Source: a virus (taxonomy: Duplodnaviria > Heunggongvirae > Uroviricota > Caudoviricetes). Taken from it: a stretch of DNA of 64,000 bases. Of this stretch, positions 10,856-62,682 are shown piece by piece. Position 1 is the stretch's first letter. Each line of letters opens with the position of its first letter. Location of the stretch: positions 77,246 through 141,245 of IMG/VR virus record IMGVR_UViG_3300013936_000013. The stretch is one strand, 5' to 3'. A program made the translations under genes and the position numbers. Below the pieces are notes generated by a model. It saw only the letters and a list, made by a program, of their open reading frames with translations. It did not search any database and was not told the DNA's origin.

Positions 10856-10862
10856 AAAAACC

Positions 10863-12295: not shown

Positions 12296-12339
12296 TTTTT
12301 ATACCTCTATATTATTATACTATAAAATAATAAAAAAAT

Positions 12340-12385
12340 CAAAAGTCAATTTTTGAATTGAAAAACTCTAAACTGACTTTTGATT
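12340..12385. terminator. terminator hairpin
   Basis: tcaaaagtca...tgacttttga inverted repeat. Confidence 0.55.
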
Positions 12386-12419
12386 TTAATATACGATAGA
12401 GTGCGCTACAAGCATCTCA

Positions 12420-15292: not shown

Positions 15293-16378
15293 TTATAAAA
15301 AAATCCTTTCTTGAAAGAGTTCTAAGAAAAGTTCTGGACCTTGATCTATTGGACTAGCTTTATATTCAAGACGATGTTGGGTATCAAAAATAAAAGACAT
15401 TTGGCATAAACTTTTATATTTTTCATTAATAGCTTCAAGTTTATGAGTCCATCTCTTAAAATCTTTATCTCCAATTTCTTGATACTGTCTATCAAAAGCA
15501 ATAATAATTTCAGTAACACCTAAAGATAATAGTAGATTAGCTTGATAAGAAATAAAATTACTTCCACAACAAGCTACACTAATATCATTATCTTTACCAA
15601 AATAAGAAGCATATAACAAAGTAGATTTTTCACTTTCAAACACTATTGCTTTATGAATAATCTTAATTGCTTCTTTACTATTATTTAAATTATAAAGATT
15701 AAAGCCAAGAGGATGATTGTACATTACACCATTAATAATTGCAGGGCGATATTTACCATCTGCTTCTTCTTCTTTTACCATAGTCCTCTCGCGGATTCCA
15801 ATAAGATTTCCATCAATATCATAATGAGGAATTATGATACCTTGAGCTACTGGGTCATATTTAATACCATGATATTTCATTACCTCTGTATCAATATGCT
15901 CTTGTTCCCAAGGGGTGATTCGCGGAGTAGGCAAATATTGAAGAATTTTTTCTGGATATGTTTTCAATTCAACAATTTGTTTATCATTGATGGAATTGAT
16001 TCGGCTGTAATTATTAAAGATTTCCCAATCAGGAAGTTTTTCTTGTAAATCAGAAAAATCATCATTATACAGCTCATAGCCAAAATATCTCGCTACATAA
16101 TTAATAGCTCTAGGCAAAAGCCACTCTTCATTTAGCTCGCGAGATTTAACTTTCATTACAAGCTGATAAATGTCAAATGAGTCCTCTGGACATTGAGTAT
16201 AACACTTAAAAAGATGAGTATTATTATAATAATACAGCTTATGCGAATCGCCATCATGACATATGGTTCGTGAAACAAAAGAACCATTGCCCATACGCGG
16301 ATCTCCGCCTAATTCCGCGACTAATCCAAATACTTGGTCTATTGTTAATTCATTTTTTAATGTATCTTTATCAATCAT
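15293..16378 (-). CDS. dnaG: DNA primase (DnaG-like, CHC2 zinc finger + TOPRIM)
   Basis: CHDGDSHKLYYYNNTHLFKCYTQC zinc-binding region near N-terminus; adjacent to dnaB. Confidence 0.6.
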   Translation of the reverse strand: MIDKDTLKNELTIDQVFGLVAELGGDPRMGNGSFVSRTICHDGDSHKLYYYNNTHLFKCYTQCPEDSFDIYQLVMKVKSRELNEEWLLPRAINYVARYFGYELYNDDFSDLQEKLPDWEIFNNYSRINSINDKQIVELKTYPEKILQYLPTPRITPWEQEHIDTEVMKYHGIKYDPVAQGIIIPHYDIDGNLIGIRERTMVKEEEADGKYRPAIINGVMYNHPLGFNLYNLNNSKEAIKIIHKAIVFESEKSTLLYASYFGKDNDISVACCGSNFISYQANLLLSLGVTEIIIAFDRQYQEIGDKDFKRWTHKLEAINEKYKSLCQMSFIFDTQHRLEYKASPIDQGPELFLELFQERIFL

Positions 16379-16380
16379 AA

Positions 16381-21704: not shown

Positions 21705-22643
21705 TTAGCTTCCTCCTTTGGTGCTATTCATACCATAAATATTGCTTTGATATAATTCAATCCACAATTTTTCTTTTTCATTTAACTAATCTCTTGGGCA
21801 TTCTTCAAGAACCTCAAAGGTAAAATTCCAAATACCATCTTGTTGCATTGAAGTATAAAGTTTGTTAGATGCTGAAGCCCCAATGCCGCAACCGCACTTA
21901 CAATGTTGTTTAAAACGTTCTCCAATAGAAACACTCTAACCAATGTAACACTGTTGCGTTTTTAAATTAGTAATTTTATAAATACCAGTTTTATCAGTTT
22001 TACCTACAATTCTAGTACTCATTTCAGATACTTTCTTTTGTAAGTATTCAGACCAAATAAGTTTATTTAAAACTGTAACATTCCTAAAGCTGCTTCTTAA
22101 ATTGAATAGTAAGTTAATATCATTTAATTCATTTTCGCTCAAGGTAATTTTATAGAAGTCAAGTTTCTTTTTCTTTTCTTCTTCTCTTAACTACGCTTCA
22201 ACGCCTGCGGCGAGTGATGCTCTAATCTTACTTAAATCTAATTCAGCTTGTTTCTTTTGGACTTGTAAATTCAAGATATATTTATCAAAATCAGATTCCT
22301 TTTTAGAATACTCATTATCAAGAGTCTCCATATAAAAATGTGCGGCATCCTCTGCTGTGCGCTTATAGTCTAAGGCTTTTTTCGCTTCAGCCTCAGCTTC
22401 TTTCTTCTAATTAGCTAAAACCGCATATTCATTGCCGAGACTATCTAATTCTACCGTTAAATCAAGAATTGAATCATGTAATCTCTATTCTTCTGAAGTG
22501 TCTAGCTCTTGTTTCTTTTTTAATTCTTCCTATAAAGAATTTATCTTATCACATTGCTAGTTATGCTAATAAACTAAATAAATAATAATTCCTGAAAGAA
22601 ATAATAAGCTAAATACAACGAGACAAATAATAAATACTTCCAT
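21705..22643 (-). CDS. free-standing GIY-YIG endonuclease fused in-frame to N-terminal TM/coiled-coil region; ~10 in-frame TAG
   Basis: GIYKITNLKTQQCYIG[TAG]SVSIGERFKQH and LNEKEKLWIELYQSNIYGMN motifs; ATG 22643 to TAA 21705 is open apart from TAG codons; region shows no long ORF under the standard code. Confidence 0.6.
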
Positions 22644-25316: not shown

Positions 25317-27686
25317 TTAAAGTTTTACAATATAATTAACTTCACTCTTAGTCATAATATTACCTAAGCTAGTTCTTACTAATTCAGGAATGTCAGTAGA
25401 AGAAATACAAATTGAATTAGGCTTACCAATCAATAGAATATTATCTTCCTTAGAAACCATTGCGGCTCCAACTAACTCTCCCGTAGAAGCAACTGCTTTA
25501 TAGCAAACTACGCCTTTTCCCGCACGACCCTGATATGGGAACTCACTTAATGCAGTTTTCTTTGCATAACCTTTTGAAGTAAAGAATGCGATATAATCAT
25601 TCTCATTATGGATTGGCAATCCAATCAAAACCTCATCATCGTCATCTAGTTTAATAGTTTTTACGCCTGCGGTGACTCTGCCAATAGGATTGATAGAAAC
25701 TGTGTCAAAATGGATACTCATACCTTTTCGAGTAATAACCACAATCTCTTCATCTTCAAGGAAAGTTACATTAGCAATAGAATCGCCATCGTTTAATTTA
25801 ATCGCCTGAATGCCAGTACTCTTCTTTACTTTCATATATTCAGAAAGCTCAGTTTTTTTTAATAGACCTTTCTTAGTAAAGAACACAACATACTTTGCTG
25901 TTGACTGACGATAAAGAGAAGTCATTGCAATAACTTTTTCATCATCATCCATAGTGATTAGAGAACTAATTCTTGAACCCTTAACTGTATTAGTTCCAAC
26001 AGGCACATTATCTACAAGCAGTCGATACATCTTACCCTTATTAGTAAAGAACATCAAAGTATCAACTGTATTCGTAGAAATGGTATCAAGAATTGCATCA
26101 TCCAAAGTTTTTACGCCCTTGCCATTTCGCTTTTGAACTTTAAAGCTCTTAGTAGGAACTCGCTTAATGTCTCCATTTTGAGTAAGCACAACAACAACGT
26201 CTTCAGGAGTTACTGTTGCAATCTCTTTCTCTTCAGGAGCAACATTAATTTGAGTAAGTTCTGTGCGACGAGCATCACCATATTTAGTCATTAATGCTGT
26301 TAATTTATTTTTAAGAACGATTTTTTGCTCATCTTCACTGTTAATTAAAACAGTCAAATTTTTAACAGATTCATCCAATTCAGCTTTTTCATTTTGTAGC
26401 TCAATTTTTTCCAAGCCAGCCAATTTACCAAGCTTCATATCAACAATAGCTTTAGCCTGATTAATAGTAAAACCATGGATTGAAGTTAAATTAGACACAG
26501 CATCCGCAGAACTCTTAGACTTTTTGATTAGAGCAATGATATTATCAATATCTTCAAGAGCTTTCAAAAGACCATCAACAATCTCTAATCGAGCTTTTGC
26601 TTTGTTAATATCAAATTCTGCTTCTCTCTTGATACACTCAAGATTATGTTTAATGTAAATCTTAATACAATCTACTAAGCCCAACTCAACAGGAGATTTA
26701 TCCACAAGAGCTACCTGATTGTAAGAAATTGAAGTCTGCAAATCAGTCTTTGCAAAAAGTTTTTTTACAACCGCATCAGGATTAGCATCCTTTTGGCATT
26801 CAATAACAATGCGGATTCCCTTTTTGTTACTTTCATCTCGAATCTCAGAAATACCTTCAACCTCTTTAGAGTCACAAACTTCTCCAATTTCAGTCATAAG
26901 GCCTTCAAGAGTCAACCCATAAGGAATCTCATAAAAGATAATTTTCTGCTTCTCAATGGTATATTTGCCACGAACTTTTACACTACCATGACCTGTTTTC
27001 ATAATTACGGGAATGTCATTTTTATTGATAATAATACCACCCGTAGGGAAATCAGGACCAGGTAAGACTGGTTCTTTTCCATCCATGTAATCAATAATTG
27101 CGGTTCCGACCTCGTTCAAATTGTGCGGGAGCCAGCTACAAGCCATCGCCACGCCGATACCTGTATTAGGATTACACAACAGATTAGGAAAGACAGAAGG
27201 CAAAGTTACAGGCTCTTCATCATTTTCGTCATAGTTAGGAATAAAATCAACAATCTTTTTCTTTAGACCATTGAGCATTCCATCTTCAGAAATCTTTGCC
27301 AATCTTGCATTAGTATAACGATAAGCTGCAGGTCCATCACCACCAATATTACCCATATTACCATGGAAATCAATCAGCGGATAACGCATTACCCAAGGCT
27401 GAGAAAGATGAACAAGAGCGCCATAAATTGAACTGTCACCATGCGGATGCCAATTGCCCATAACATCACCAACAATTTTTGCACATTTTGCGTACTCTTT
27501 ATTTGAAGCATAACCGCCGTCATAAGCGCCCCAAAGAATGCGGCGAGCGACAGGTTTAAGTCCGCTTCGAGCATCAGGTATACTTCTGTCCAAATTTACA
27601 GCTGCCGCATATTCAATAAAATTTTTACTTAATTCATATTGAAGGTCATTAATTTGATATTTATCTTTTAATTCAATATTATTCAA
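25317..27686 (-). CDS. type II DNA topoisomerase subunit A (GyrA/ParC-like; T4 gp52-like); TTG start
   Basis: ARSGLKPVARRILWGAYDG (GyrA N-terminal motif), 789 aa. Confidence 0.8.
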   Translation of the reverse strand: MNNIELKDKYQINDLQYELSKNFIEYAAAVNLDRSIPDARSGLKPVARRILWGAYDGGYASNKEYAKCAKIVGDVMGNWHPHGDSSIYGALVHLSQPWVMRYPLIDFHGNMGNIGGDGPAAYRYTNARLAKISEDGMLNGLKKKIVDFIPNYDENDEEPVTLPSVFPNLLCNPNTGIGVAMACSWLPHNLNEVGTAIIDYMDGKEPVLPGPDFPTGGIIINKNDIPVIMKTGHGSVKVRGKYTIEKQKIIFYEIPYGLTLEGLMTEIGEVCDSKEVEGISEIRDESNKKGIRIVIECQKDANPDAVVKKLFAKTDLQTSISYNQVALVDKSPVELGLVDCIKIYIKHNLECIKREAEFDINKAKARLEIVDGLLKALEDIDNIIALIKKSKSSADAVSNLTSIHGFTINQAKAIVDMKLGKLAGLEKIELQNEKAELDESVKNLTVLINSEDEQKIVLKNKLTALMTKYGDARRTELTQINVAPEEKEIATVTPEDVVVVLTQNGDIKRVPTKSFKVQKRNGKGVKTLDDAILDTISTNTVDTLMFFTNKGKMYRLLVDNVPVGTNTVKGSRISSLITMDDDEKVIAMTSLYRQSTAKYVVFFTKKGLLKKTELSEYMKVKKSTGIQAIKLNDGDSIANVTFLEDEEIVVITRKGMSIHFDTVSINPIGRVTAGVKTIKLDDDDEVLIGLPIHNENDYIAFFTSKGYAKKTALSEFPYQGRAGKGVVCYKAVASTGELVGAAMVSKEDNILLIGKPNSICISSTDIPELVRTSLGNIMTKSEVNYIVKL

Positions 27687-28578
27687 TTAAATATTCATCT
27701 CCTAACAACATTTCTAATGTAATCTAATCTCTTTCCCAATAAGGAATTCGTACTAATGGTATATTATTTTCTCTACAATATTGATTTTTAATTTTATCAT
27801 TCTTCTAAATAGATTCTAAATCATAGGTAAAAAAATTCTATTCTTTAAAATGTTGTATCCCATCAAATTCAATCAATCTAATTAATTTTTCCTTTTGATA
27901 AATACCAAAATCATATCTTAAAGGTTTAATATTTTTTAACTCTTTAAAAGTAACTTGCTTTTTATATTCAATATGATTAATTTTTAATATATTTTCAATA
28001 TTAATTTCACCAATAGAAGTTGATATGCATCCACAAGACTACACAGTTCCGTCTTTCAAATGAGAACTGGAAACTTCATGCTATTTTCCACAATCACATT
28101 GACAAACCCAATACATATGAGAACCATCTTTCATTGAGGTTGGATACATTGCAATTAATTTACCAAATCTTTGTCCTTTTAAATTTTCAAAAGTTTTATG
28201 ATAAGGACAATTCACTTTACCACAACTATTAACAGAACCTCCATTTAAATTATTTGAAGTTACTTCATGTTCATTTCCGCAATCACATTTACATTCCCAA
28301 ATAATACTTCTATGAAGTCGTTTTCCAGTATCTTTTATTACAGTTAAATGTCCAAATCGCCTTCCGACTAAACGAGTACTTAATTCAACTTCCTTCTTAG
28401 GAGGAATTAATTTTTTATCAATAATTACTTGATAATCTGGATTAGGCCAACTTCCTGTTTTAGTTACAATATATCCTTTATCTCGCATAGCTTTCTAAGT
28501 TCTACCAAAGCTAGTTTTTAAAGTAGAAAGACTATAACCATACTATTTACTAAATTCTTCTTTAGTCATATTAGTCAT
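27679..28578 (-). CDS. putative nuclease: tandem Cys-rich zinc-ribbon repeats + C-terminal PD-(D/E)XK (Vsr/DUF559-like) domain; 4 in-frame TAG
   Basis: Two repeats of W.C.CDCG.EHEV.S..L..G.V.SCG; C-terminus YDFGIYQKEKLIRLIEFDGIQHF...NIPLVRIPYWE resembles the Vsr-like endonuclease fold; GGAG RBS + ATG 28578; sits between topo II A and B genes. Confidence 0.5.
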
Positions 28579-45177: not shown

Positions 45178-46857
45178 ATGCCAACAAACAATGAAAATAT
45201 TGCGGTTCTTTGGTAGGGTAAAAGCTGGACAGTTCTTGACAAAATTTTAAAGCAAATGAATAATGATATTGCGGAGGTAGCAGCTCAAGTGAATACGGGT
45301 TTAAATGCTCTAGTTGCTTCTCAGTTTGCAGCAGCTAGAACTGGTAAAGTTTTTACAACTAAGTTTCCACGATATGAAATTTCAACAAGTCCAACTGGTA
45401 TTAAGATGGATGATAATGAAGGCATGGTATGCATCCCTTCAACTCCTACTTCTAAGAATACTAATGACTATGAAAGTGAACCAATGTTCCAGATTTTGGA
45501 ATGTAACTGGGAACTAGATAATGCGGGTAATATTAATATTACTGCAATTAAAGGTTTGAACAGTGAGTTCGCTCGTGATGGCTCAAATGGACAAGTAGGT
45601 ATTATTAATATGCCTTGGTATGTAAAGAGCTGGGAAGATGAAAATTACTGGTATATTTCAGTATCTGATACTCAATATTCTGGTTATCAACCTCTTGGTG
45701 AATGCATTAAACCAGATGGTAGTCTTCAGGGCTTTATGGTTCATGCTAAGTATGCTATGGTTGAGATTGAGGGTAAGCCATATAGCGCTTCTGGCCGTAG
45801 ACCATGCGCGGGAGGACAGCAACCTACTAATGTTTTTCATGTAGAAGGTGGAGACGATGTAACAGAGAAACCTACTATTGTAGCTCCATCTTATAGTGGA
45901 TTAATTAACTATTGTCATAAGCATAGTAATTTCTATTGTGCAGAAACTAGTAATGATGTTTTCTTTATGCAATTACAGTATATGATTAAATATGCAACTT
46001 TAAATTCACAGAGTGTATTGAATGGTTGTTTTAATTATAGCTATAATTATAAATGCACCGTTGCAGAAAAGAAAACTAGAGGTATTATTATTGCCACATC
46101 TAATGCTAATAATCTAGTAGTTGGTTCTACTTGCTCTATTGGTACAGTAAGTGGAGATAGATATTATGCCACTCAAAATGATATTCTATATAGCAGAAGA
46201 ATTAGTAAGATTGAGCAGTATGATGCTAGTAACTCTAAAGTTTGGTTTGAAACTGATTTGCCTGAAGGTTATAGTTTTGATACTGACACTACTTATTATT
46301 TAATTACAATGCCTTGGTATACTGGTAGTTGTGATAATGTTTTAGGTATGGATGGTTCTGCGGGTAATCCCACTAATGGTAAATATCCTGCTCTGATTGG
46401 TGGTATGGAATATTTTGTAGGTGGATTTGAAACCTTGGGCAATGTAGTAATGGACATTCAAGCAGAAGAAGGTTCTACTGTTCGTCGTGATTTCTATATT
46501 GCGCATGATGCTACTATTCTCACTACGGATATGACTATTGTTAAGTCTAAGTTTAAAAAGAGTAAATATACTCGACCTGGTTATGACTTCTGGATTGCTA
46601 AGCATGGTATTGATTTGGATAATGGAATGATGATTCCTACTTTAGGTGGCGCTTCTGACCATACCGGATTCTGTGATTATTCTTGGGCGGATTAGGCTAC
46701 TAGTGGACAGAGAGAAGCTCTATTCTTCGGGCGTCTGGGCTATGGCTCCTGGCGTGGTGCTTGGAGTCTGGATGCGGACGGTGGGCTCGGGCTCACCGGG
46801 TGGAATCTCCTCTCCCGTATAAGCCCGAATGGTATGTATGGAAATTTAAGCACTTAA
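45178..46857 (+). CDS. DGR target protein (559 aa) with C-terminal variable region; 2 in-frame TAG
   Basis: AAAGGAG RBS + ATG 45178; TAG at 45217 and 46693; VR lies in the last 55 codons; stop TAA 46855. Confidence 0.7.
46724..46816 (+). repeat. DGR variable repeat (VR)
   Basis: 93-bp match to TR with 16 mismatches, all at positions that are A in TR. Confidence 0.8.
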
Positions 46858-46875
46858 AACAATAGGAGGTAAGTT

Positions 46876-47229
46876 ATGGTAGAATTAAGATCTTGTGAAA
46901 AACAACCTGAATTCTAGTACTTTCCTCTCCCTGACACTGATTTAGCAGATGTAATTATTTGTCGCAATGAAAGAACTGAAGAGGTAGAAAATTCTAATGG
47001 ATTAGAGTCTAATGAAAAAAAGATTACAATAATGTATGTTTATGACTCTAATTCTTTTAGAACAACTTTGGACAAATCTGTTATAGAGGAAAACTTAGAT
47101 TTTTATATTAATTATGAAGAGACAAAACCAGATTATCCAAAAGAGATTGATGATTTGAAATCTCAATTAATGGATACTCAAATGGCTTTATGTTCTATTT
47201 ATGAAGCGATGGAGGCGCTAAGTTCATGA
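46876..47229 (+). CDS. avd: Avd-like DGR accessory protein (117 aa); 1 in-frame TAG
   Basis: AGGAGG RBS + ATG 46876; between VR and TR as in canonical DGRs; identity by position and size only. Confidence 0.45.
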
Positions 47230-47345
47230 TTATGGCAAAAATTTATTACAACTTAATCAAGAATGGTCTAAAAACCATCGATGATGTGCCCGAAAAATTG
47301 CGGGCAGAGGTCCAGAAGTTGCTGGACAAAGATAAGAAAAACTAA
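47226..47345 (+). CDS. hypothetical 39-aa protein
   Basis: ATGA overlap with avd-like gene; MIMAKIYYNLIKNGLKTIDDVPEKLRAEVQKLL. Confidence 0.3.
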   Translation: MIMAKIYYNLIKNGLKTIDDVPEKLRAEVQKLLDKDKKN

Positions 47346-47414
47346 TTTTAATAACAATACAAACTTTTGATTAAATAATAAATAGCAAAAAATAAGGTTT
47401 TATACTTCGAGAGG

Positions 47415-47507
47415 TCTTCGGGAATCTGAACAATGGCTCCTAGAGTGGTGCTTGGAATCTGAATGCGAACAATGGGCTCGGGAACACCAGGTGGAATATC
47501 CTCTCCC
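47415..47507 (+). repeat. DGR template repeat (TR)
   Basis: A-rich copy of VR; in target frame encodes many AAY codons (AAT AAC AAT ... AAC AAT). Confidence 0.8.
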
Positions 47508-47511
47508 TTTT

Positions 47512-47578
47512 CTCTTTTGAGTTTAGAATATCAAAAGAGTACTGGCGGCTATAAGCCGCCAGTATATTTTTGTTTTTT
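47512..47578 (+). terminator. two hairpins immediately 3' of TR, second GC-rich with T-run
   Basis: ctcttttga...tcaaaagag and tactggcgg...ccgccagta followed by tatttttgtttttt. Confidence 0.5.
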
Positions 47579-47777
47579 ATATGTAGCTTTAGATATTCTT
47601 TTAAAGTATAAAACACCCTAAAAAGGTCTTTGCTTAGAGTATTTTACTCGAAATTTGCAATGATTAATCTAGTTCCATTGGAGGACTAGTTATAATGAGG
47701 TCAGTAAATTATTATCTATTAGAAAGGATGATGATTAAAAGCGTTGTTAATTAATCAAAAGAGAAAGAAGGCTAGCA

Positions 47778-48980
47778 ATGGCAGTTCACTCTTACTGCAA
47801 GAATAAAGACATTTCAGATGTCAAGTTTATTTATTATTGTGCAAAAGATTGTTTACATGATAAATGGCGTCGTGATGACGTAGTAAGATTTTTAAACGAA
47901 TATAACCCATTGTTCACTAGAAGACAGATTCTCGAACAAATTAATAAGGATAAATCTGTATTTGACTCAACTTTAATGAGAGTCGCAGAAGAACTTAGTA
48001 ATGAAATAAAAACAAAAACAGTCCACTTTAGACCGATTCGTTATAAAGAAAAATATGATGCTAATTCCAAAAAATTAAGGATTATAGGCATCCAATCTGT
48101 TAAGTAGCAAATATATGATTATGTTGCGGTTAAAGGTGCCCAAGAAATGTGGGATTGCAAAATTGGTTATTACCAGTGCGCATCACTGCCAGGCCGCGGT
48201 CAAGTATATGGTAAAAGCATGATTGAAAAATGGATACGTTCTCCAAAAACAAGAGACAAATGTATTTATGTTGTTAAAGGAGATATTAAAAAATGCTATC
48301 CTTCAGTATCTATTCCAATCATTAAAAAACTATTGAAAAAAGATATTAAAAATGATGATTTACTATATCTAATATTTACTTTAATAGATTCTTTTGATAG
48401 AGGACTATCAATAGGTTCCTATCTTAGTTAGTATCTCTGTAATTATTATCTTTCTTATGCTTATAGCTATATGGATAATGAATTAAGAAGATATTATTCT
48501 TTTAAATTATTTTATATGGATGACTTCATTATGATTGGCGAAAATAAAGAATAGCTTGTTAAAGCTATGCAGAAATTCATTTCTTATATAAAAGAAAAAT
48601 TAGATTTGACAGTAAAACCAAACTGGGAAGTCTTTCCTATTGATTATATAGATAGCCACAAGAAACGGCATGGTAGACCCATAGATATGATGGGCTATGT
48701 TATTTATCGAGACCACACAACAGTTAGAGCTTGTATTTTTCTATCAATTAGACGTTCTTATTTGCGTGCGGCTAAGCGATATGTTGATGTTAGACCTAGA
48801 AAAAGGATACCTGTGGAAGCTGCCCATAGATGCGTTTCTTATTTTGGATGGCTAAAGAATTCAAGCTCAGGAACTTTTATATTTAATTATAATGTAAAAG
48901 TAATTTTTTCCTTAGCTAAATGGTCGGTTTCTAAATTTAATAGAGACAAAAATCAATGTTCTGAAAAGCGAGGTACATAA
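47778..48980 (+). CDS. DGR reverse transcriptase; 3 in-frame TAG
   Basis: ORFs 47778..48107, 48147..48431 and 48567..48980 share one frame and are joined by TAGs; motifs RIIGIQ, YVVKGDIKKCYPSV, LSIGSYLS[TAG] (DGR GxxxSQ hallmark) and YMDDFIMIG. Confidence 0.8.
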
Positions 48981-48981
48981 T

Positions 48982-49512
48982 ATGCCTTCTATTAACCATG
49001 GTTATCAAAAGCAAGAAGATGGGTCAATGACCCTCGTTGATTTGGCGGTTAAAGCAGAAAATGCCATTATGCCTGATGGCTCAACAGTAGAAGAAAATAT
49101 TGGTAATACCAATGATACTTTAAACAAGATGTTTAAATCTTTAACTACTACGGCAAAAAATATTACTCAAGCAGATACCATTACTTTAGATTCTAATATT
49201 ACTAATTAGGATTTCAAATATCTTATTATTTATGCAAAGTTAAATGATATTTTACTTGAAACAAAAGTAATTCCTATGATTAACCTATCAACCTCACCTG
49301 CGGTTGTTACTTATCATATTGTAGATGCGGCGGGAGCCACCTAGAAGACACTTTAGTATCAGGTTCAAGTTTCTGGAACTAATAAATTAGTTATTTCTAA
49401 TTTATATTGTCATACCATCCATGCAACAGAAGAGGAACTTACGTTCCAGACTTTGACCACACTTGGCGATGATACTTATACTATTACTGGAATTTATGCC
49501 AGTGTAAAATAA
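48982..49512 (+). CDS. hypothetical protein (176 aa); 3 in-frame TAG
   Basis: ATG 48982; reads through TAG at 49207 and two more to TAA 49510. Confidence 0.4.
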
Positions 49513-49514
49513 AA

Positions 49515-49556
49515 AATTGGGAGTTATTCGTAATTGAATAACTCCCAATTTTTTTA
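49515..49556. terminator. bidirectional terminator between plus-strand island and late minus-strand block
   Basis: aattgggagttattc...gaataactcccaatt then T-run. Confidence 0.7.
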
Positions 49557-49683
49557 TACATAGATATTATTTGCGGCAAGGATTTTTTTAACCTTATCTT
49601 TTAGTAAGCGAGGAACCTCCTCGAAAGTGCGTTCACCCGCAATAATTTTTTTTGCCCATAATTCAGCAATCATATTAAATACC

Positions 49684-50160
49684 TCATTGATATACTATTT
49701 CACTTAGCTCTAGAAGACAATCTTCTAAAGTTTTATTTGACTCATTTAGGCTTTTAACTTGCGCGGTCAATTCTGAATTAAGATTTTTTAATTCATCGTT
49801 TTCTTCTCCCAAAGTGTTTATTTTTTCTTTTAATTGATTGATTTCAGTTCTTTCACCAGTAGTAAATTCATAAACTCTTTCATTAGGATTCCCACCAGAA
49901 TATTTTTGAGTAGTGGCTACCCGCAAGTTTTTATTTTTTCGCATTTTAATCTTTAACTATTGATATTCTTTCTATGAAATACCAAGCAAAGAATACTCAT
50001 TTAGATCATAGACAGTATTCTAATCAGATGATAGCACTCCTTGAGCTTCATCCTCTTCGCAAAATAGCTTAAGATTATATTCCTCTTGATATTTAATCCA
50101 AGATGGATTTTTTAATAGGTCAACAATAAGACCTTTATGAATGACTTTATAGTACAACAT
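49684..50160 (-). CDS. hypothetical protein (~158 aa); 3 in-frame TAG
   Basis: GGAGATTAT RBS + ATG 50160; joins ORF 49684..49944 through TAGs. Confidence 0.4.
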
Positions 50161-50183
50161 ATAATCTCCTTATATAAAAAGAA

Positions 50184-50213
50184 AAATGGGAGCGCATAAT
50201 GCGCTCCCATTTA
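50184..50213. terminator. terminator hairpin after giant gene
   Basis: atgggagcgc ataa tgcgctcccat with flanking A/T runs. Confidence 0.65.
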
Positions 50214-50214
50214 A

Positions 50215-53200
50215 TTATTTCTTGCCAACAAAAATTGCAAAAGCGCAAGGGAAGTAAGAGTAAGCTGGATAGTTACTATTCCATTTACCTTCGCTATTGA
50301 CTGCACCGAAGCCATTAGGATAACTAATGAACTCTTGATTATCTTCATCTACATACTCAATATATGTAGAAGCTAACCAATAGTGCTAATTATCTATATT
50401 AACAGCTTCTTCTGGACGTCTACGAACTCTTGAAGGATCGTCAGTAAAGACTGCAAAAGTAGAACCTTCTTGAGCGTAGATTGGATATCTATCAACATCC
50501 ATTGCAATCTTAGAAATTTCTGCATTATTTGGAATCCAAACTTTATCCATATCAGTAATGAATGTAGAAGTATTATTCATTTTAATTGTAGTTCCAGTAT
50601 TACTGTTACTCCAATAATCATTAAAGAACTTTTCTTCATCAGACTCTGCGGCTAAGCTAGTTCCGCCAGTTACCTGAATTTCAGCGTAGTTACCAACTGA
50701 GCTCTTACGAGATTTAGGACTGATAACTGCCTGAACTAAACCAGGCAATAGATTATAAATATCATTATTAGCAATATCTCTTAGCTCACTGTACCACCAA
50801 CCGCCATTATTCCAAGATTCTCCTTTTAAGAAAGTATTGATTCTAACAGTTGCTCCTTTAACAACAGGGATTGTTAATGTTGCATCTTCAGTTAGCTCAG
50901 TAAAGCCTGCGGCGTTCCATACTGCGTCGCCATTATTCTTAGTCAAAGTAACTCCAGAAGATAGCTTAGATTGAGTTAAATCATAAACAACAGAAGTCTC
51001 ATCTGGAGAGGTAACTGTAATCTTTGTAAGTAATGGACGACCTAATCTATCTACATTATTAAAAGTTGGAGCAATAGTTACAGAAGTAATATCTTCAGTA
51101 TGCTCATATACGAAATTATCACTATCAGCATCAATATTACCAATTTTATAGCAATATGCTTTTCTTTCTTGACTATTCATTTGATATGCTTTCAAAGATA
51201 GCATATTAGTCAATAGAGTGATACCAGAAGCAGACATATCGGTTAGAACCAGCTGTTCTGTTTGTTTTACACCACGCTCATCAGGATTTAAAGTAACACT
51301 CTTACCCTAACCGAGCTTCCAACCATAGTCTGAATAACTCTTCGTACCTGCGGTGACCGTGTTAACTACCGCTTGGATCTAACCCCAAGAGCAATCAGAG
51401 AACTCCATGGGCTCTGCACTAGGTAGTTCAATCTTAGAAGCAACTGCAAAGCAGTAGATGGTACCATCAACCGCATTAACGCTTAGAGACTCCATATTAT
51501 CCAAAGAAGCAAAGTTTTCAGGGAACTTAAAGGTATCTGTTCTCCAACCAGGCACTCTGACTATTGTCCATCCACCTTTTAGCCACTTGCTCAAATCTTC
51601 ACCCTTTAACGGGTCTTCAACTGTGCTCATATTTACATTAGCTCCATATGCTATTGCAGTAGAAGGATTACCAGAAGCATCTTCTTCAGTACCTGTAATA
51701 GAGAAGTATGGAGTTGCAGAATTTAGATTTTTAACAGCTGTATCATAATCCTGTTTAAAGAAATAAATGTTATAGTGACGTAGCTTAGGTGTATAAGTTG
51801 CAGTTAAAGTGCGGTCTTCAGTTACTTTTAGATAACTACCGTTCCAAGAGCTATAATAATAATTGTACTGAGCATCTGTTGGTTTAGTAGGAGTATCAAT
51901 TACCACATAATCTAATCCACCAAAATTATTTGGGTCATATGCTGTTCCATCTGCATTATAACCATTAAAGTTGATTGGATTATAGCCATCTTCTCCACCA
52001 ATAATTTGATAAGAACATAAAGTAGTTCCATCATAATTCTTAAATGTTACGGTATATAGATGACGACCATATAGAATACTAATATTAGGCATATAGCGTT
52101 TATAAGCTGCCATCGCCGCATCTTCAATTTGAGCAACATCAATAGTACCAGAAATGTATGGATTAGTGTTACCATTATAAATGATACCAGCTTCATCCAA
52201 TCCTTTACAGCTTAAAAGTTGGTTAAATACTTCTTCACCATTGCCATCAAGATGCCATTGAATATCAATTAATCTCAAAGTCTAAAGGTTCTTAGCTTGT
52301 TTGATAATATTTACCAATAGCTAGTCTGCAGATGGATCACATTCCTCAACTGTAATAGTTGAAAGACTATCATAACCTTGCAAGGTTAATACGCTCAAAT
52401 GCGATAGATTCTATAATTTAATATTAGTAATTGTTTTAGGCAATTTTAAAATCTCAATATTGCTATTAGCTGCAAGAGTGACAGAAGGAATATTAGTATT
52501 CTCTGCATAGAAGTATCTTAATGCAATACAGCTATTTAGTCCAATAGTAGTGTTTAAATAGGTTAAACCAGTTAGAACAATCTTCTTTAATAGATTACTA
52601 TTAAAGGAAATGTTAGTACCGTTAGCCCAAGCATTATTTTCATAACCTTCAACTTCGCTACCTAATAGAACTTCTTGCAATTTCTTAGCTTGAGAAATAT
52701 CCAACCAACTTAAATACGCGGGAGCCAGGTCTCCTAAGCTAGTAATCAGAGATGCATTGTAGACATAAGTCTCAACACCGCCAGAACCAGTTGAAGTAAA
52801 GTCAGGAGCTTTAACTGTTGTAGGAACTCCTCGCTTAGCTTTTGTTCTAATATAATCACCATTGCCATATTTTACTAAGATATACATATCAGAGTAAGGA
52901 GTAATAGTTAAATCTTGGTTAGGTGCAACAACTTTATTTTCAGTAGGCTTAGTGATACGCATCTGAATAGCATCGCCTACTGCGGTTGGACCTTCATACT
53001 TAGAACTCATATAGCGGTCTTGATAGAATAAGAACCAGTCACGTTGTAGTTGCTTATTTCCTAGCATCATAGAAATATAAGTTCTATCATTATCATTTAA
53101 GTATGGATTGATATATTTCTTAAACATATCTTCAATCCAAATAGCTTCACACCAGTTAGCTTGATAATCAGAGAATTTTTTACTTAAACGAAATGCGTTA

Positions 53201-56200
53201 AATGCACCTTCATTTTCTTTCTCTTGAACCATTTTCTTGATATCATCAGCAAAGCATTGTTCTAGATTAATCCATAGAACTGAGTCTTCGCCACCATATG
53301 CTTCACTACCATCGCGATATTCAATACCATAACTATGGCTTAAACGACCAATGTTATCAATACCGAGAGCAGTATCATTATCGTAGTCATATTTAAAGTG
53401 CCAATGTTTACCATCATCAGTTGCCATAAATACGTTTTTAGCACGGTTATCAACCATCAGATGACGTTCAGTAAAGATGTCTAGCCAAATGGCAGAATCT
53501 TTGATAAAATAATCTTCAAATTCAGCTTTAAATTTAGCTAATCTATATTCAGCAGTATCTGCGGTGTAGGTTTTTCCATCATAAACAACAGCCTAAGGTA
53601 GCGTATTACCTGTAGCCGCCGCAGTATCAGTTGAATTAACCCAAGCTACAACTCTATGCAGATTGTCAATATCAGTTTGAGTATAGCCTTTCTTTGGAAA
53701 TCTAAATTCAAATCCTTCTTCCCAAGCATCGTTACTAAAATCTGCAGATTTAAAAGAACAAAGGGCAGATTCATTAGTCAGGAACTCAACGCAGCATTGC
53801 TCAGGATATTTACTTCTATCTTGACCGAAAACATTATAATTAGTTTTATCATTATTCATGTTTGCTTTTGCATAGAAAGTTAATTCAGGGTTAGGGTCTG
53901 CTGTATTTCTATGGAAAATAATGATAGGTTGACCTTCAATGGTGCCACGAATTTTATTGGTAAAACCTTGATTGTGAAGTTCAGTAATTAGCTCATCACG
54001 TTGAGTTGTGCGGTCAGCCTTAGGCTCATAGCCTTTTGCCGCAGCCATTTCAAGCAATTCATCAAGCTGAGGATCAGAGATGTAAGGATCATAAATATTA
54101 TATTCATCTGTCAAAAGAACATTATTTGCCCCTTCAGAAGAAGCAACGTCAACTTTCATACAGAAGTAATCTACACCCAAACTCTTATCAGATATTGCAA
54201 AGGTGGCTTCTTTAGCTCCTGTGTCTGCATGATTAAAACCATCAACTTGGAAATCCATATTTAGGTTTAGAGCTGCTCGACCATAACCCGCAGAAGAAGT
54301 ACCTTGCATACCAATACCAACATTTTTAGAGGTGAAACTCTTTCTGTTGTTATTAGGATCTACATAAGTAACATCGCCACGAACAGGCGGATTGTTTCTA
54401 TCTTTAATTTTAGAAGTAGGGAAAATAAATGGATACTGACTAGAGTCAGAATTAATAATCATATATTTAGACTGTAATTTATCAAGAACAATGTTATGAT
54501 AAGCGTCATATATATTATTTCTCTGATAACGAGCAATAATTTCATCAGATGTTGGAGCATCAAGAATAAAATTATTTAAGACTTCATATTGGTCAAGAAC
54601 TTTATTGTAAGTCTTAATTAAATAAACATCTAAGTCACATTCAGAAGAACCTAGAGTAATACTAACAGGATTAGTCTGAATGAATAAGTCGTCATTCTCA
54701 TAGATTGCGGCAGAGCAAGGAATACCTTGTAGATACCATAGAATCAAACTCTTTTGAGTTGAAGGATAAACAACTAAATCCATTTCAATATAAGAATCTT
54801 CCTTATAAGGAACTTCCATTTCAATATCACGAGAATTAAAGACACCGCGGTTGGCAAATAATCTTAAACCAACATTACTTGATTCATCAAAACAATTAAT
54901 AATTTCAGTATCATAGTTAATACTATTTCTGCACTTAAAAATCATTTTAATTGCTTTACCACTATTTTTAAAGTCCTATCCAAATAGTTTTAGTGGAATA
55001 GTAACTTTATCATTACTTGCCTTAATTCTTAGGACTGTTGCTCCATCTTCATCAGACTACCAGCCACCATTAACCCAGTCAAAGCTAGTTGGGAACTCAG
55101 TAGAATAGCCATTAGAAGTCCAAGAATTATAATTAGACTGCGCATTACTTCTACCAACAGCAGAAAAGTTTGCTTCAAGACTATTTGTAATAGGTTTAGC
55201 ATCAATTTCAAGTGCATTGACCTTCAATTCAATAGTTCTAGATTGAGTACCACATCTAATAATTAAGCGGCGGGCGTAGGTATTAGTAAACTTTAAGGTC
55301 CAGTGTTGTAAAGTTCGATCTGGATTAATAGCAATTGAACTAGCTCTTACCCATTCACCTGCACCATCATTAGCGTCAGTATTAAAATACCATTCTTCAA
55401 GTGAACACTGTCTATTATTGTTATTATTAGCTGTACTGTAATTTGGATCCCAGATTAAATAAGGGATAGAAACATTATCATATTCAGTAACCTCGGTCTA
55501 AGCAAAAGAAGAAGCAATAATAGGAGTTCCATTACCGCGACTAACAAAGATAATTTCATAATATAGTTCATTACTAATTAACTCTGCGCCATTTAAATTT
55601 GCGGTGACCCAGACTTTTAAAGGATATGCGCCATGTCCTTTGAAAGGAATATCCTGAGTTGAAATGCCACCAGAAGTAGAACTGATAATATCTTTAGACC
55701 AAATGACAGTTTTATTAGTTCCTGCGGAATACAATTCAAAGTGTACTGTCTTTTCAAAGCTACCGCCCGCAGTTACAGTATAGGTGAAAACCGCATTATC
55801 ATAGTATGCTTGATAGGCGTTAAAAGTAGAAGTCAGTTCTAGAGATACTGTTGTAATAGTCCATCTTAAACTTCTTACATTACCAGCATTATCAGTTAAA
55901 ATAACCTGAACTGAGTTACTACCACGAATTAGAGAATCAGTAATATCATAAGAATAATAACCTTGAGTTACATTAGTATTCTAATCTACTTTAACTCCAT
56001 TAACATTGATAACAATAGAACCATTGCCTGTTGATGCTCCATCGTCACTATATACAGAAGACCAGTTAAAACCAATATAAGTTTTTTCTTCACCTTTGTA
56101 AATAGTAGTCATGCTTGACGGAATCTCTGGGTCGTAGGTCATTTTGAAAGTAATACCATTACCGCCAGAACCGCCACCTGTACCTTCAATAGTAATAGTA

Positions 56201-56793
56201 CCTAGGGGAACCGCATCACCTTTTTTATACCATGAAAGCTCATGTGTAGTATTATCAAATTCAATATCTAAGTCTTCAAGAGCATTTAGATTTGCTACTG
56301 TTTCTTTTAATGCGGCGAGGTCATCGGCGGAAGCATAGTTAGGTAAAATACCATTAACTTCATCCTTAGTATAATAACCAGATAAGTCGGTCGCAATGGA
56401 TACACCACCAGTAATTCTTTCACCATTGCTTAGTAGATAGAATTTACTATCATCATCAATTTCATAGCCATCTGCTTTCTTTTGGGTGTTCTAATCTAAA
56501 GTATCTAGATAATCTAGAATTAGACTCAGCTGAGTTCTAACTGCAGTACCCGCAGATGTATATTTTTCGCCATTAAATTTATCAAATTTTTCATTAGTTA
56601 AGCCTTGACGAATATCCTCTAGTTCAGTTTGGCGATTATTACTTGAAAAAGTAGGATATTTAGTTAAAAGATTGTCAACTCTATCATTCAGAGTCTTCAT
56701 TGAATCTGACAGATTTCCGCCAGTCTCACCGACATATTCTTTGTTTGCTTCTGCTAGTAGGCGCAAGGCTTCTACAATAGATATTTTACTCAT
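50215..56793 (-). CDS. giant 2192-aa structural/adhesin-like protein (Ig-like and LRR-like regions; probable tail fibre or host-recognition protein); 12 in-frame TAG
   Basis: ORFs 56491.., 55498.., 53593.., 52411.., 51379.., 50386.. all share one frame; every gap between them was translated by hand and holds only TAG codons, no TAA/TGA; TAA in-frame just upstream of ATG 56793; stop TAA 50215. Confidence 0.7.
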
Positions 56794-57404
56794 ATCTGTT
56801 TACCATAGACCTCCTATAACATTTGTTTTACTTCAAGGTCATCTACAAAAATTAGCTCAAAACTCGCAGAATCTTTAATTTTTTCCATGTCATCTACATC
56901 AGGATTATATAATCCATCGCCAATAGAAAGATTAGTATTGATTGTAGAATTCCACCTATAACATTCTGTATTAGTGGTAGTATCTACATCAATAAAAATT
57001 AAAGAAAATTGAATGCGACCAGGAGCAGTAGTAATTGAGCCTTTAATTATCCAAGAAAATTCAACCATATCAGGATTATCTTCCATGACTTGCATATCCT
57101 CAATTGGGTAGAATCCATCTACCTTAGCTCCCGCATTATACCATTTTACTAATTTAGATGAACATTTTAAAATATCATATCCATCAATAAATCTAGGGCA
57201 ATTAAAAGTGATTGCATTAGAGTTATGGTCTGTGCGGATACCTACAACAGAATGAAATCCAGGCTGTAAAGTAAATGTACGAGTTAATGCATCTACAAGG
57301 ATAGGCGGTTCCTCATCTTGGAGAAAATTAGAAGTATCATTATTTATAATAGTGTCAAGACTTTGAGTAGAAATATCATTGATTAGTGATAAATAATCTG
57401 TCAT
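56790..57404 (-). CDS. hypothetical structural-module protein (204 aa); 1 in-frame TAG
   Basis: AAAAGGAGAG RBS + ATG 57404; reads through TAG 56814 to TGA 56790, overlapping start of giant gene. Confidence 0.5.
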
Positions 57405-57856
57405 AAAGTCTCTCCTTTTATCTCTTGTTTAATTCTTTCACAATCTTGAAGAATTTGATTACACAACATTGCATATTTCTAACACGCTTTGGTTAGTTGA
57501 GTAGAGGTATCTTCAGCAGGATTGTTTACAATATTGCTTGTGTAACCTGATTGTTTAATAAAAACTGTTTCAGCATTTGTAGTAATTAAATCACCACAAT
57601 AAATACTAACTTCAAAACTAGGACTTTTAATAACTTCTGCAGGAATATAACATTGATTATCTTTAAGACCATCTAATCCTAGTGTCTATTGATAAGTTTT
57701 CCCTTTATATGTAAATAAAGCAAAAACTGGATTTACCCATTCAGAAGTTTTAAAATTAAATGTTGCAATAAGATAGTTTTTACTACCTGCAACAAAATAA
57801 TCATTTGTAGTTTCTTTAGTTAGTTTTTGATGTGAAACATTAAAACGAATTTCCAT
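57401..57856 (-). CDS. hypothetical structural-module protein (151 aa); 2 in-frame TAG
   Basis: AAAGGAGGTAAAAGG RBS + ATG 57856; ATGA overlap with next gene; no ORF visible under the standard code. Confidence 0.45.
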
Positions 57857-57965
57857 AATCCTTTTACCTCCTTTATTATTCTATTAAAAATTAAAATATT
57901 ATTTTTATGATTTCCGCCCAAAAAGAAAAGAGGTTGAGATAAACCCAACCTCTAAAGAATAAATC

Positions 57966-59501
57966 TTAGACAACCTGCTGATAGCGGTCAGCCATCAGGG
58001 TTTCAACACAGAGATCCCAACCAGTCTTTCCAGTCAGAACACTCTTAAAGATAACAGGAGAGAAACCACTCACGAAAGAAACATCAGGACCTGCATCCAG
58101 AATGTTCGCATCACCGCGAGCATTAACATTCCAGTAAACCAGCTTAGGCAACCTCTTGCCATAAGCAGCCCACTTCCGACGAATCTGCTCCATCTCAGTA
58201 GAAGCAGACTCCTGAGTCCACCGCTTAGAATAATCACTCCAAGAACCAGTACCCTGATCAATCTGCATATCACTAATGACTACGATAGTCTTAGGAATGT
58301 CAGACTCCTTAACACCGGGAGTCAGAGCGGTATTCAACAGCAGGTCAAAAACAGCTTCCAGATTGGTGTTATCGCACAGATTAGTACGATAAATGCGGCG
58401 GCACTTATCAACAAAATCAATGCCCTCAATCTTAATCAGCTGAGGCTTACTAGCAAAGCTAATGTAATGATTGTGGAAAGGACCTCCGATTCGCTCTGCG
58501 CAATACATACCCAGAGAAATTGCCACATTCATAGGTGCGCTAGCTTCACTACCAGTCATAGAACCAGAAGTATCAACAACACACATCATAGAACAATCCT
58601 TACCATTCAGGTAGTCAGGCAGATTAGCCCAATACTTATTAATCATTGCACGGTCAACTTCATCCAGAGAGCTGTTGCCCCAGTAATCACAGCCCTTAAC
58701 CGCCTTAGCTACGACCTCATAAGGATACAGAACAGAAGCATTCACGCTCTTGGTGGTATCCTTAGCAAACTTCTCATACTTCTTTGCGATAATGTCACGA
58801 CGGGCAAATGCATTCTTATAGATGAAACCCGCACGAGAAGGAATCTTATCAAACTCAATCTCATCCCAACGGTTCTCAGACATCAGACGCTCAACAATAT
58901 TGATACGACGACGCAGCTCAGACAGAGTCTTACGATACTCCTTATGAGACAGACCCAAATCCTTGCGGATTCGAGCGGCAGCCCACTTAGTCTTTGCAGA
59001 AGAAGCATTCTCAGAAGGCATCCACTTACCCAGCAGGGAAGGAGTCTTACACTGAATATCCAGACGCAACTGCTTCTTAATCAAATTCAGAGCACTCTGA
59101 TAAACAGGAGTATCAATAGTGGAATAAATCAAGTCATCCCAACGTCCATACTCAGAAACGTTATCCAGATTAACCTCTGCACGAGCAGGGTCATTCTGAC
59201 ACAGCCAATTAAAACAAATACGGAAGAACTCACGCTCACCCTGACCACCGCGGCAATCACGCAGATAAAACAAGCACTTCATTGCCAAAGTAGCATCCTC
59301 TTCATAGGCGTTCTTAAACAGAAGAATCTTATCTGCAGCACCGCGCTTACGATAAGCGCCACCCAGCGCAAACATATCATAAACTGCGGAATTGGTAGTC
59401 TTATGAGCCAATGCGCCATTCTCAGTACGGGTAAAGTTAGAAGCGTTAGACAGAGTATTCATAAAAGTATTCATCATATATCTCCTTTTTTCTCTTAACA
59501 A
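57966..59501 (-). CDS. von Willebrand factor A (vWA) domain protein, DUF2828-like
   Basis: MIDAS motif CVVDTSGSMTG; 511 aa; locally higher GC and different codon usage than neighbours. Confidence 0.6.
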   Translation of the reverse strand: MLREKRRYMMNTFMNTLSNASNFTRTENGALAHKTTNSAVYDMFALGGAYRKRGAADKILLFKNAYEEDATLAMKCLFYLRDCRGGQGEREFFRICFNWLCQNDPARAEVNLDNVSEYGRWDDLIYSTIDTPVYQSALNLIKKQLRLDIQCKTPSLLGKWMPSENASSAKTKWAAARIRKDLGLSHKEYRKTLSELRRRINIVERLMSENRWDEIEFDKIPSRAGFIYKNAFARRDIIAKKYEKFAKDTTKSVNASVLYPYEVVAKAVKGCDYWGNSSLDEVDRAMINKYWANLPDYLNGKDCSMMCVVDTSGSMTGSEASAPMNVAISLGMYCAERIGGPFHNHYISFASKPQLIKIEGIDFVDKCRRIYRTNLCDNTNLEAVFDLLLNTALTPGVKESDIPKTIVVISDMQIDQGTGSWSDYSKRWTQESASTEMEQIRRKWAAYGKRLPKLVYWNVNARGDANILDAGPDVSFVSGFSPVIFKSVLTGKTGWDLCVETLMADRYQQVV

Positions 59502-62044: not shown

Positions 62045-62102
62045 TTTTAATAGCGGTAGCACGAAGAATTGAACTCCGGCTACTAGCGTATTAACCACTC
62101 TA
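62045..62102 (-). pseudogene. truncated tRNA-like element (58 nt; acceptor + D-arm + T-arm, no anticodon arm)
   Basis: GGTAGCA...TGCTACC acceptor, D-loop AGTGGTTAA, T-arm CGGAG-TTCAATT-CTTCG, but only 9 nt where the anticodon arm should be. Confidence 0.25.
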
Positions 62103-62194
62103 CTATGCTACCACATAAAAACAAGATGAATATTTTATACATATCTTTTTCTTGTAAGAATTATAAATATTATATTGCTGTATTCATCTTTAAC

Positions 62195-62418: not shown

Positions 62419-62517
62419 ATGGTTGGGGATGAGAGACTCGAACTCTCACACCATCCGTCAGAGGGATGGGCTCTGGTGGTTTTAGAGACCACTGCTTTAA
62501 CCGTTAAGCAAATCCCC
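62419..62517 (-). tRNA. amber-suppressor tRNA (anticodon CUA), tRNA-Gln-like acceptor, ~96 nt (99 with encoded CCA), with 28-nt extra region
   Basis: Acceptor TGGGGAT/ATCCCCA (U1-A72, as in tRNA-Gln), D-arm GCTT-AACGGTTA-AAGC, anticodon stem GTGGT/ACCAC, loop CTCTAAA (U33, CUA, A37), then 28-nt insertion containing hairpin CCATCC-CTCTGAC-GGATGG (Gln CUG-type loop), T-arm GAGAG-TTCGAGT-CTCTC, A73, CCA. Confidence 0.7.
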
Positions 62518-62682
62518 ATTATCTTTATTTCTCTTAGATTGCTTTGCGTTATATCGCTTAGCCGCCTTGCAATTTGAACATCCATGTTTATTTTTGCAAT
62601 AACAAAGACAATAATCTTCTAACCAAAAATGGTATGGAATTGAAGGTTTAATTTTACGACGAGGAATCTTTTTACCTTTCAT
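62497..62682 (-). CDS. hypothetical basic Zn-ribbon protein (61 aa), overlaps 5' end of suppressor tRNA by ~20 nt
   Basis: Intact ORF with CxxC...CxxC; reality uncertain because of tRNA overlap. Confidence 0.25.
   Translation of the reverse strand: MKGKKIPRRKIKPSIPYHFWLEDYCLCYCKNKHGCSNCKAAKRYNAKQSKRNKDNGDLLNG

Follow-up and report, generated by a model that had tools for sequence, protein, structure and literature searches.

A 2,192-codon TAG-containing gene of a putative code-15 phage, and the likely CotH-fold tail adhesin that it encodes

The giant reading frame

The 64,000-nt stretch of viral DNA analyzed here (positions 77,246 to 141,245 of the IMG/VR record IMGVR_UViG_3300013936_000013, a member of Caudoviricetes; hereafter "the window") carries on its minus strand, from 56793 to 50215, a single giant reading frame. 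It starts with the ATG at 56793, ends with the TAA at 50215-50217 and comprises 2,192 sense codons, including 12 TAG codons predicted to be read as glutamine, with no TGA and with only one TAA, the terminal one. A sequence-only reading of the window had proposed, from translation by hand, a 2,192-codon late gene with 12 TAG and without internal TAA or TGA; the computed frame count agrees, and the check for a missed TAA or TGA, which that reading had named as refuting, returned no internal instance. Given the base composition of the region, 119 TAA or TGA codons would be expected in 2,192 codons (the probability of finding none is ~1e-53), each of the other five frames of 50215-56793 contains 103-388 stops, and the giant frame is the longest TAA/TGA-free stretch of the window.

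The TAG codons, all on the minus strand, are found at codon positions 101 (56491-56493; TAG or GAA in the orthologues described below), 271 (55981-55983; CAG, CAA or GAA in the orthologues), 432 (55498-55500), 579 (55057-55059, in a conserved GWQ motif, with CAA or CAG in 4/4 orthologues), 606 (54976-54978), 1067 (53593-53595, within the predicted CotH-fold domain), 1461 (52411-52413, in the region of leucine-rich repeats (LRR), with CAA in 4/4 orthologues), 1491 (52321-52323), 1504 (52282-52284), 1805 (51379-51381), 1829 (51307-51309) and 2136 (50386-50388). Translation table 11 resolves the gene into six in-frame open reading frames (ORFs) of at least 60 aa (100, 78, 450, 348, 299 and 283 aa), which matches the earlier statement that the standard code splits it into six or more; the ORF at 55029-55217, the seventh in the ORF list, is out of frame with the giant gene. 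The peptide cited in the same reading (TGLTYLNTTIGLNSC...LKLPK) was located at aa 1408-1453 of the giant protein.

Orthologues and selection

Full-length relatives of the giant protein are P0001 (92% identity, 2,192 aa), P0002 (89%), P0003 (63%, 2,144 aa) and P0004 (54%), and a database search yielded 30 further, more distant homologues of 1,220-3,629 aa; the family alignment used below comprises the giant protein and these 34 homologues (35 sequences). The gene of P0003, at 10001-16435 of the 139.6-kb sequence L001 (JGI Ga0376455_0000012), is a single unbroken standard-code ORF of 2,144 codons with no TAG, and the genes of P0002, P0001 and P0004 contain 11, 18 and 2 TAG codons, respectively, mostly at sites unlike those in the window.

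With 12 premature stops under the standard code, the frame could be taken for a decaying pseudogene that accumulates nonsense mutations. However, all 12 stops are TAG, with none of the 119 expected TAA or TGA, and the full frame is retained in the orthologues, with differing TAG sites. Compared with the two closest relatives, the gene as a whole has a ratio of nonsynonymous to synonymous substitution rates (dN/dS, Nei-Gojobori) of 0.07-0.08, and the individual segments between TAG codons have ratios of 0.01-0.20; the low values in all of these segments, including that after each TAG, indicate selection on the protein 3' of every TAG. Moreover, the phage encodes a matching suppressor tRNA (see below). 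A second alternative, that the locus comprises six to thirteen separate small standard-code genes, would be in line with the six in-frame table 11 ORFs (78-450 aa), each of which has an ATG or TTG start. Against it stand the L001 orthologue, which is one ORF without TAG, the PHROG profiles 14959 and 24896 (1,110 and 2,494 positions), which align across five TAG codons, and a single compact predicted CotH-fold domain (predicted local distance difference test, pLDDT, of 85), which spans TAG 1067; in addition, the TAG positions are not kept between relatives. The orthologue, dN/dS, profile and domain results together exclude both alternatives, and we consider the probability of either one practically negligible.

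The comparison thereby establishes, at the level of sequence, that 56793-50215 is to be read as a single 2,192-codon gene under purifying selection along its full length. The proposal of one gene read through TAG is accordingly well founded: the TAG-free L001 orthologue, the shifting TAG sites, the purifying selection in each segment and the tRNA with the anticodon CUA (tRNA(CUA)) all argue for it. The orthologues that are 89-92% identical to the window protein show turnover between TAG and CAA/CAG, which points to quick gain and loss of recoded codons. Annotation with table 11 would break the gene up into six or more "hypothetical proteins" and miss a putative CotH/LRR adhesin that matters for predicting the host range of gut (probably Bacteroidales) phages. 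The warning that standard pipelines would mis-annotate the gene holds for table 11, but not for the public protein collections as a whole, which already contain full-length TAG-recoded orthologues. A blastn search (distant mode) with the giant gene against 50,697 GenBank phage records gave no match.

Decoding of TAG and the putative suppressor tRNA

There are 34 alignment columns with TAG in any of five orthologues. The non-TAG codons in these columns are CAA (57), CAG (21), Glu (GAA/GAG, 17), Thr (12) and few others; the share of Gln is ~60-62%, which matches the probability of 0.58 that ordinary Gln columns retain Gln (P(Q|Q)). The log-likelihood (lnL) of the TAG columns, calculated with a substitution table derived from the same orthologue alignment, is -229 for Gln, -415 for Glu and -584 for Ser, placing Gln ahead of the next residue by 186. 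The ratio of CAA to CAG in the TAG columns (57:21) mirrors that of the giant gene's own Gln codons (40:16). The 12 TAG codons of the gene thus sit mostly where the orthologues carry CAA or CAG, and TAG is predicted to encode glutamine.

A candidate for the decoding tRNA is located at 62420-62518 (minus strand), in a tRNA array 5.6 kb upstream of the start codon of the giant gene. It has the anticodon CUA in a 7-nt anticodon loop (CUCUAAA), a cloverleaf structure and an encoded CCA end, and it matches the Rfam tRNA family with 55.5 bits. ARAGORN reports it as "tRNA-???" and, in the intron mode, as "Pyl with intron". The sequence aligns to the phage's own tRNA-Gln(UUG/CUG) genes except for a 24-nt, 6-bp hairpin inserted in the variable region. 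The tRNA is identical at 97-99 of 99 nt in five genomes, i.e. the window and four relatives: L004 (4472-4570) and three IMG/VR contigs of 137, 134 and 54 kb (L009, 10551-10649; L010, 334-432; L011, 5085-5183). Coding regions of the phages sharing it differ at 39-54% of synonymous sites, and the near-identity of the tRNA despite this divergence indicates that the 24-nt insert is under selection. No CUA tRNA was found among the 13 tRNAs of the examined part of the L001 tRNA array. The array of the window also contains, at 62054-62112 (minus strand), a 59-nt Rfam tRNA match (44 bits) not called by ARAGORN, which apparently has acceptor, D and T arms and no anticodon arm, and may be truncated or tRNA-like.

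The form of this tRNA invites the question whether TAG is read as Ser, Leu, Tyr or Pyl rather than as Gln. The long class-II-like variable arm (the 24-nt hairpin) and the A73 discriminator would fit such a reading, the seryl- and leucyl-tRNA synthetases do not read the anticodon, and ARAGORN leaves the tRNA untyped or, in the intron mode, suggests Pyl. On the other hand, the TAG columns hold 2% Ser, 1% Tyr and 0% Leu compared with ~60% Gln, the likelihood of Ser is far below that of Gln, the CAA:CAG ratio in these columns is like the gene's own, the body of the tRNA (U1-A72, G2-C71) aligns with the tRNA-Gln genes of the phage, and in phages of standard-code hosts TAG->Gln is the only reassignment of TAG observed (10.1101/2021.08.26.457843). 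We therefore regard decoding as one of these four residues as very improbable, and the candidates were rejected on the strength of the substitution analysis. The tRNA(CUA), whose gene is present in the sequence, is predicted to act as an amber suppressor that inserts glutamine. It would be a derivative of tRNA-Gln with a conserved class-II-like variable arm, and this shape may be the reason why suppressors remain undetected in most recoded phages: a standard tRNA finder mis-types it, which bears on the reported ~60% of TAG-recoded phages in which no suppressor was found.

Use of TAG in the window and in a sister lineage

Reading TAG as a sense codon raises the coding density of the window from 0.67 to 0.83. 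Each of the 36 TAG-free genes is terminated by TAA or TGA; among them are those for a PolIII-alpha-like DNA polymerase (best match: SPbeta YorL, 41%), DnaB, Dda, RecJ, both topoisomerase II subunits, NAD ligase, PhoH and RNA ligase. The TAG-bearing genes cluster at 45178-57856, with 1-12 TAG codons each, and a few small ones are found elsewhere. On this comparative evidence the window would belong to a low-GC phage of ~135-140 kb that uses code 15 (TAG = glutamine) in part of its genes, and the recoding mechanism (code 15 together with a phage suppressor tRNA), which is already known, is well supported.

A gene at 3562-5841 (minus strand), recognized by eye from its translation as an NrdD-like anaerobic ribonucleotide reductase, contains one in-frame TAG, which indicates that the recoding is not strictly limited to structural genes. 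Two small genes amid the TAG-free replication genes, at 21705-22643 and 27679-28578 (both on the minus strand), are among the most TAG-dense of the window, with TAG making up 8/20 and 7/14 of their Gln-type codons, respectively. The product of the former has a GIY-YIG-like C-terminus (...GIYKITN...GQS...) and looks like a homing endonuclease; that of the latter is Cys-rich.

Recoding of TAG gives no gain of coding density in L001, which has the same gene order as the window. This sister lineage appears to use the standard code, and could serve as a natural control for the gain or loss of the code change.

Domain organization and fold prediction

The Pfam scan of the window giant protein returned nothing above the threshold, with Big_13 and Glucodextran_B as sub-threshold matches. 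When 22 homologues were scanned singly, DUF6273 was found in nine, LRR_5 in eight and CotH in five of them, in addition to LRR_8/LRR_4 and Flg_new; BppU_N, Mtd_N and Laminin_G_3 were each matched in a single homologue. Mapped onto the giant protein, the homologue matches correspond to aa 1086-1213 (CotH), 1387-1428 (LRR_4), ~1582-1665 (Flg_new) and ~1967-2183 (DUF6273). Structural models were built for aa 700-1345 and aa 1346-2192 of the orthologue P0001 with AlphaFold2 (AF2).

From these data we propose the following organization (all on the minus strand). Residues 1-204 (56182-56793) form a lineage-specific N-terminal region, presumably the end attached to the virion, for which no Pfam or PDB match was found in the window protein; distant homologues have BppU_N (P0006) or Mtd_N (P0022) in its place. 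Residues 205-729 (54607-56181) correspond to a β-rich region conserved throughout the family, within the span of PHROG 14959/24896, with the weak Big_13 match at 260-310. They are followed by the CotH-kinase fold (aa 730-1345, 52759-54606), the LRR solenoid and Listeria-Bacteroides (Flg_new/B-repeat-like) β domains (aa 1346-1700, 51694-52758), and a β-rich C-terminal region with a DUF6273-like (C-type-lectin-like) end (aa 1701-2192, 50218-51693). DUF6273 has been modeled as a C-type-lectin fold in targets of diversity-generating retroelements (DGRs) (PMC10743442). The sequence-only reading had listed Ig-like and LRR-like repeats. The latter are corroborated by the LRR_4 match and by the fold of the C-terminal part, for which internalin B is the best PDB match; the former come down to one sub-threshold Big_13 match, and the largest and best-conserved module, the CotH-kinase fold at about aa 730-1345, had been overlooked.

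The CotH-kinase fold is indicated by AF2 modeling, Foldseek, the homologue Pfam matches and conservation. The AF2 model of aa 700-1345 (pLDDT 85, predicted TM-score 0.85) gave as the only significant PDB matches the structures of the Bacillus cereus CotH kinase (5JDA and 5JD9; Foldseek E-value 5.8e-9, TM-score 0.70 on the target, probability 1.00). Among its top matches in BFVD are phage proteins whose annotation reads CotH or spore-coat-like, e.g. gp353 of Bacillus phage G, and "internalin-like" and "spore coat protein-like" proteins of crAss-like phages. At the sequence level, Pfam CotH is matched by P0007 with 27.2 bits (cut-off 23.8) among the five homologues mentioned above, and not by the window protein. 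Profile searches of PDB found nothing for the CotH region even at E<=10 and nothing for the N-terminal 763 aa, and a profile of the whole family gave weak LRR matches only.

Within the CotH-like region, the motif Q830-G-T-x-S834 and the residues K880, N891, K983, E1029, D1115, K1119 and N1120 are invariant in the 35 sequences, and at least 90% of them retain Y1137, D1138 and D1140. D1115 and D1138 are 23 residues apart, as are the catalytic/metal-binding residues D228 and D251 of B. subtilis CotH (PMC7821199). From this spacing and the predicted fold, D1115 and D1138 are the putative equivalents of the CotH catalytic residues, and an intact CotH active site in the giant protein is plausible.

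For aa 1346-2192, AF2 (pLDDT 75) predicts an LRR solenoid and, C-terminal to it, β domains; the match of this model to internalin B has an E-value of 1.3e-4.

Genomic context and predicted role in host recognition

The giant gene is the last of a three-gene transcription unit on the minus strand, in which successive genes overlap by 4 nt. The first gene (57401-57856, 151 aa, 2 TAG) belongs to phrog_19695, of unknown function; the second (56790-57404, 204 aa, 1 TAG) ends in a TGA that overlaps the ATG of the giant gene (ATGA). These are the two TAG-containing genes that had been reported upstream of it. The unit is preceded by a terminator-like 10-bp hairpin (57929-57953, minus strand) and followed, 2 nt past the giant TAA, by a terminator-like hairpin with a 13-bp stem and a T-run (50184-50212, minus strand). 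Its gene order is kept in L001, L004 and L005. A scan for sigma-70 promoters gave no more than the shuffled expectation. Directly upstream of this late unit lies a Ro/TROVE-like gene (57966-59477, minus strand; DUF2828 and DUF7788, phrog_850 "RNA-binding protein"), which is TAG-free, forms a 44% GC patch in the window of 34% GC, and occupies the same place in L001, L004 and L005.

The other neighbors of the giant gene are small unknown genes and, at 45178-49512 on the plus strand, a complete DGR with a tail-like target, which is also present in L001. The DGR is itself TAG-recoded, with 2, 1, 3 and 3 TAG codons in its four genes: the target (45178-46857, 559 aa), an avd-like gene (46876-47229), the reverse transcriptase (47778-48980) and a 176-aa ORF (48982-49512). 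The target matches phrog_17147 and the tail family phrog_5302. All of the 16 mismatches between the variable repeat (VR, 46724-46816) and the template repeat (TR, 47415-47507), both of 93 nt, occur at TR adenines, and a TAG triplet of the TR corresponds to TGG in the VR. The giant gene was considered as a second target of this DGR and rejected, as it contains no VR-like match to the TR on either strand.

Further clues to the role of the giant protein come from distant homologues. In the siphophage NatCom_3357, the homologue is encoded after the tape-measure protein, Dit and an 800-aa presumed Tal (annotated as hypothetical), and before the holin and endolysin. The homologue gp44 of Bacteroides phage BT-TP2 (L007, PQ571279.1), a 2,262-aa protein annotated as hypothetical, shares 25% identity with the family across 98% of a 459-aa protein fragment. 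It is a DGR target, located beside a reverse transcriptase, with a VR/TR pair of 112 nt each (13184-13295 and 13469-13580 of the phage sequence) in which 11/11 differences fall at TR adenines. As an isolated and culturable phage, BT-TP2 could be used for testing the giant-protein family.

Granted the recoding, the product might be neither a tail fiber nor an adhesin; we also considered an effector outside the virion, or a virion protein that is internal or delivers an enzyme, with CotH-type kinase activity on host or phage substrates as its main role. Conservation across the family is highest in the CotH-fold core (D1115, K1119 and N1120 are invariant, D1138 is conserved in >=90% of sequences), tail genes are not adjacent in the window, and a Ro/TROVE-like RNA-binding gene is found among the neighbors. 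On the other hand, homologues carry the baseplate/fiber attachment domains BppU_N and Mtd_N, the C-terminal modules (LRR/internalin, Flg_new, C-lectin-like DUF6273) are of the surface-binding type, the siphophage homologue occupies the slot of the receptor-binding protein, and DGR diversification, as seen in BT-TP2, is typical of receptor-binding proteins; besides, the roles of adhesin and kinase are not exclusive. Altogether, we judge a non-adhesin role unlikely. The product of the giant gene is likely a giant CotH-fold/LRR tail-associated adhesin, and the original suggestion of a tail fiber or another host-recognition structure is still the best reading in the light of the homologue domains, synteny and DGR targeting.

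Proposed explanation

The joint explanation that we favor (with a probability of roughly 0.85) is a code-15 phage with a single TAG = Gln gene, decoded with the help of a phage suppressor and encoding a giant modular tail adhesin. Accumulated tRNA(CUA) would cause the host ribosomes to insert Gln at TAG instead of terminating, so that the TAG-containing genes (the three-gene unit, the DGR cassette next to it and a few small genes) would be made only after the TAG-free replication genes, a post-transcriptional timing of the kind modeled by Borges et al. In the giant protein, the lineage-specific N-terminus would serve for attachment to the virion, followed by the β-rich region, the CotH-kinase-fold core with its family-wide catalytic-type Asp, Lys and Asn residues, and the internalin-like LRR and B-repeat region, and the C-lectin-like DUF6273 end would bind the host surface.

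Several points weigh against this explanation. Read-through and the virion location are predictions from sequence and models. The class-II-like long variable arm of the suppressor is atypical for tRNA-Gln. The domain calls rest on homologues and on the AF2 model of a 92%-identical orthologue, in which the last ~150 residues are modeled with low confidence, and the putative CotH catalytic residues were assigned by conservation and the 23-residue Asp-Asp spacing. Finally, no recognizable capsid or tail genes flank the giant gene in the window, and hence the term "tail" rests on the distant homologues.

We speculate further, with considerable doubt, that the giant fiber could be an active CotH-type kinase at the tail, and that, during adsorption or entry, a surface protein or glycan of the host, or else a co-delivered substrate, might become phosphorylated. 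If true, a tail kinase would represent an enzymatic step without a described precedent among tail fibers. A literature search on CotH in crAss-like phages found nothing relevant, and CotH-lectin fusions in phages have been noted as unstudied (Benler et al., PMC8008677); as a well-conserved example with clear orthologues, the giant gene would be a reasonable target for the study of CotH-fold phage proteins. The locus also illustrates how code-15 recoding can hide a very large late gene, seen here from sequence alone and with a natural control in L001.

Comparison with known systems

The window phage resembles the code-15 gut phages (crAss-like phages, Lak phages, other clades of Borges et al. 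and the phAss-1 group) in that TAG is found mostly in structural/late modules and is missing from the replication genes. Low GC content, the absence of TAG as a terminator, a phage tRNA(CUA) and a standard-code close relative are likewise shared. Recoding in alternatively coded gut phages was proposed to delay the translation of late genes until the suppressor is made (10.1101/2021.08.26.457843), mass spectrometry has borne out TAG->Gln in crAss-like phages (PMC9523058), and TAG-recoded phages of ~136 kb have been reported as a group of their own (PMC10607447). Unlike the known code-15 phages, the window lineage has no close relative among the 50,697 GenBank phage records, and its suppressor has the conserved 24-nt variable-arm hairpin and is left untyped by ARAGORN.

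With the Bacillus CotH Ser/Thr kinase (5JDA/5JD9; PF08757) the giant protein shares the fold, the D-x3-K-N motif and a second Asp 23 residues on. However, the sequence identity is only ~10%, and the domain is embedded here in a 2,192-aa multidomain protein of the extracellular type. Among solved structures, Listeria internalin B gives the best match to the C-terminal third, in agreement with the Flg_new and LRR matches of the homologues. As the query consists of several domains, however, its global TM-score remains low (0.09-0.17), and there is no sequence-level relationship; we regard this as an architectural analogy, not as membership.

Further counterparts are DGR targets. Proteins of ~2,000 aa with CotH and Laminin_G_3 domains were described as DGR targets of category f1, CLec3 (Wu et al. 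2018, PMC5758913). Category f1 and BT-TP2 gp44 share with the giant protein a similar length, a mostly alignable sequence, a CotH-like core, the phage context and a DGR beside the gene. In contrast to category f1, the giant gene has no VR corresponding to the local TR, and the window DGR targets the neighboring 559-aa gene; compared with the homologues, the C-terminus of the giant protein has diverged from the WWLRS...GFC lectin motif. With these differences, we consider the giant protein a new member of a recognized, uncharacterized phage protein family.

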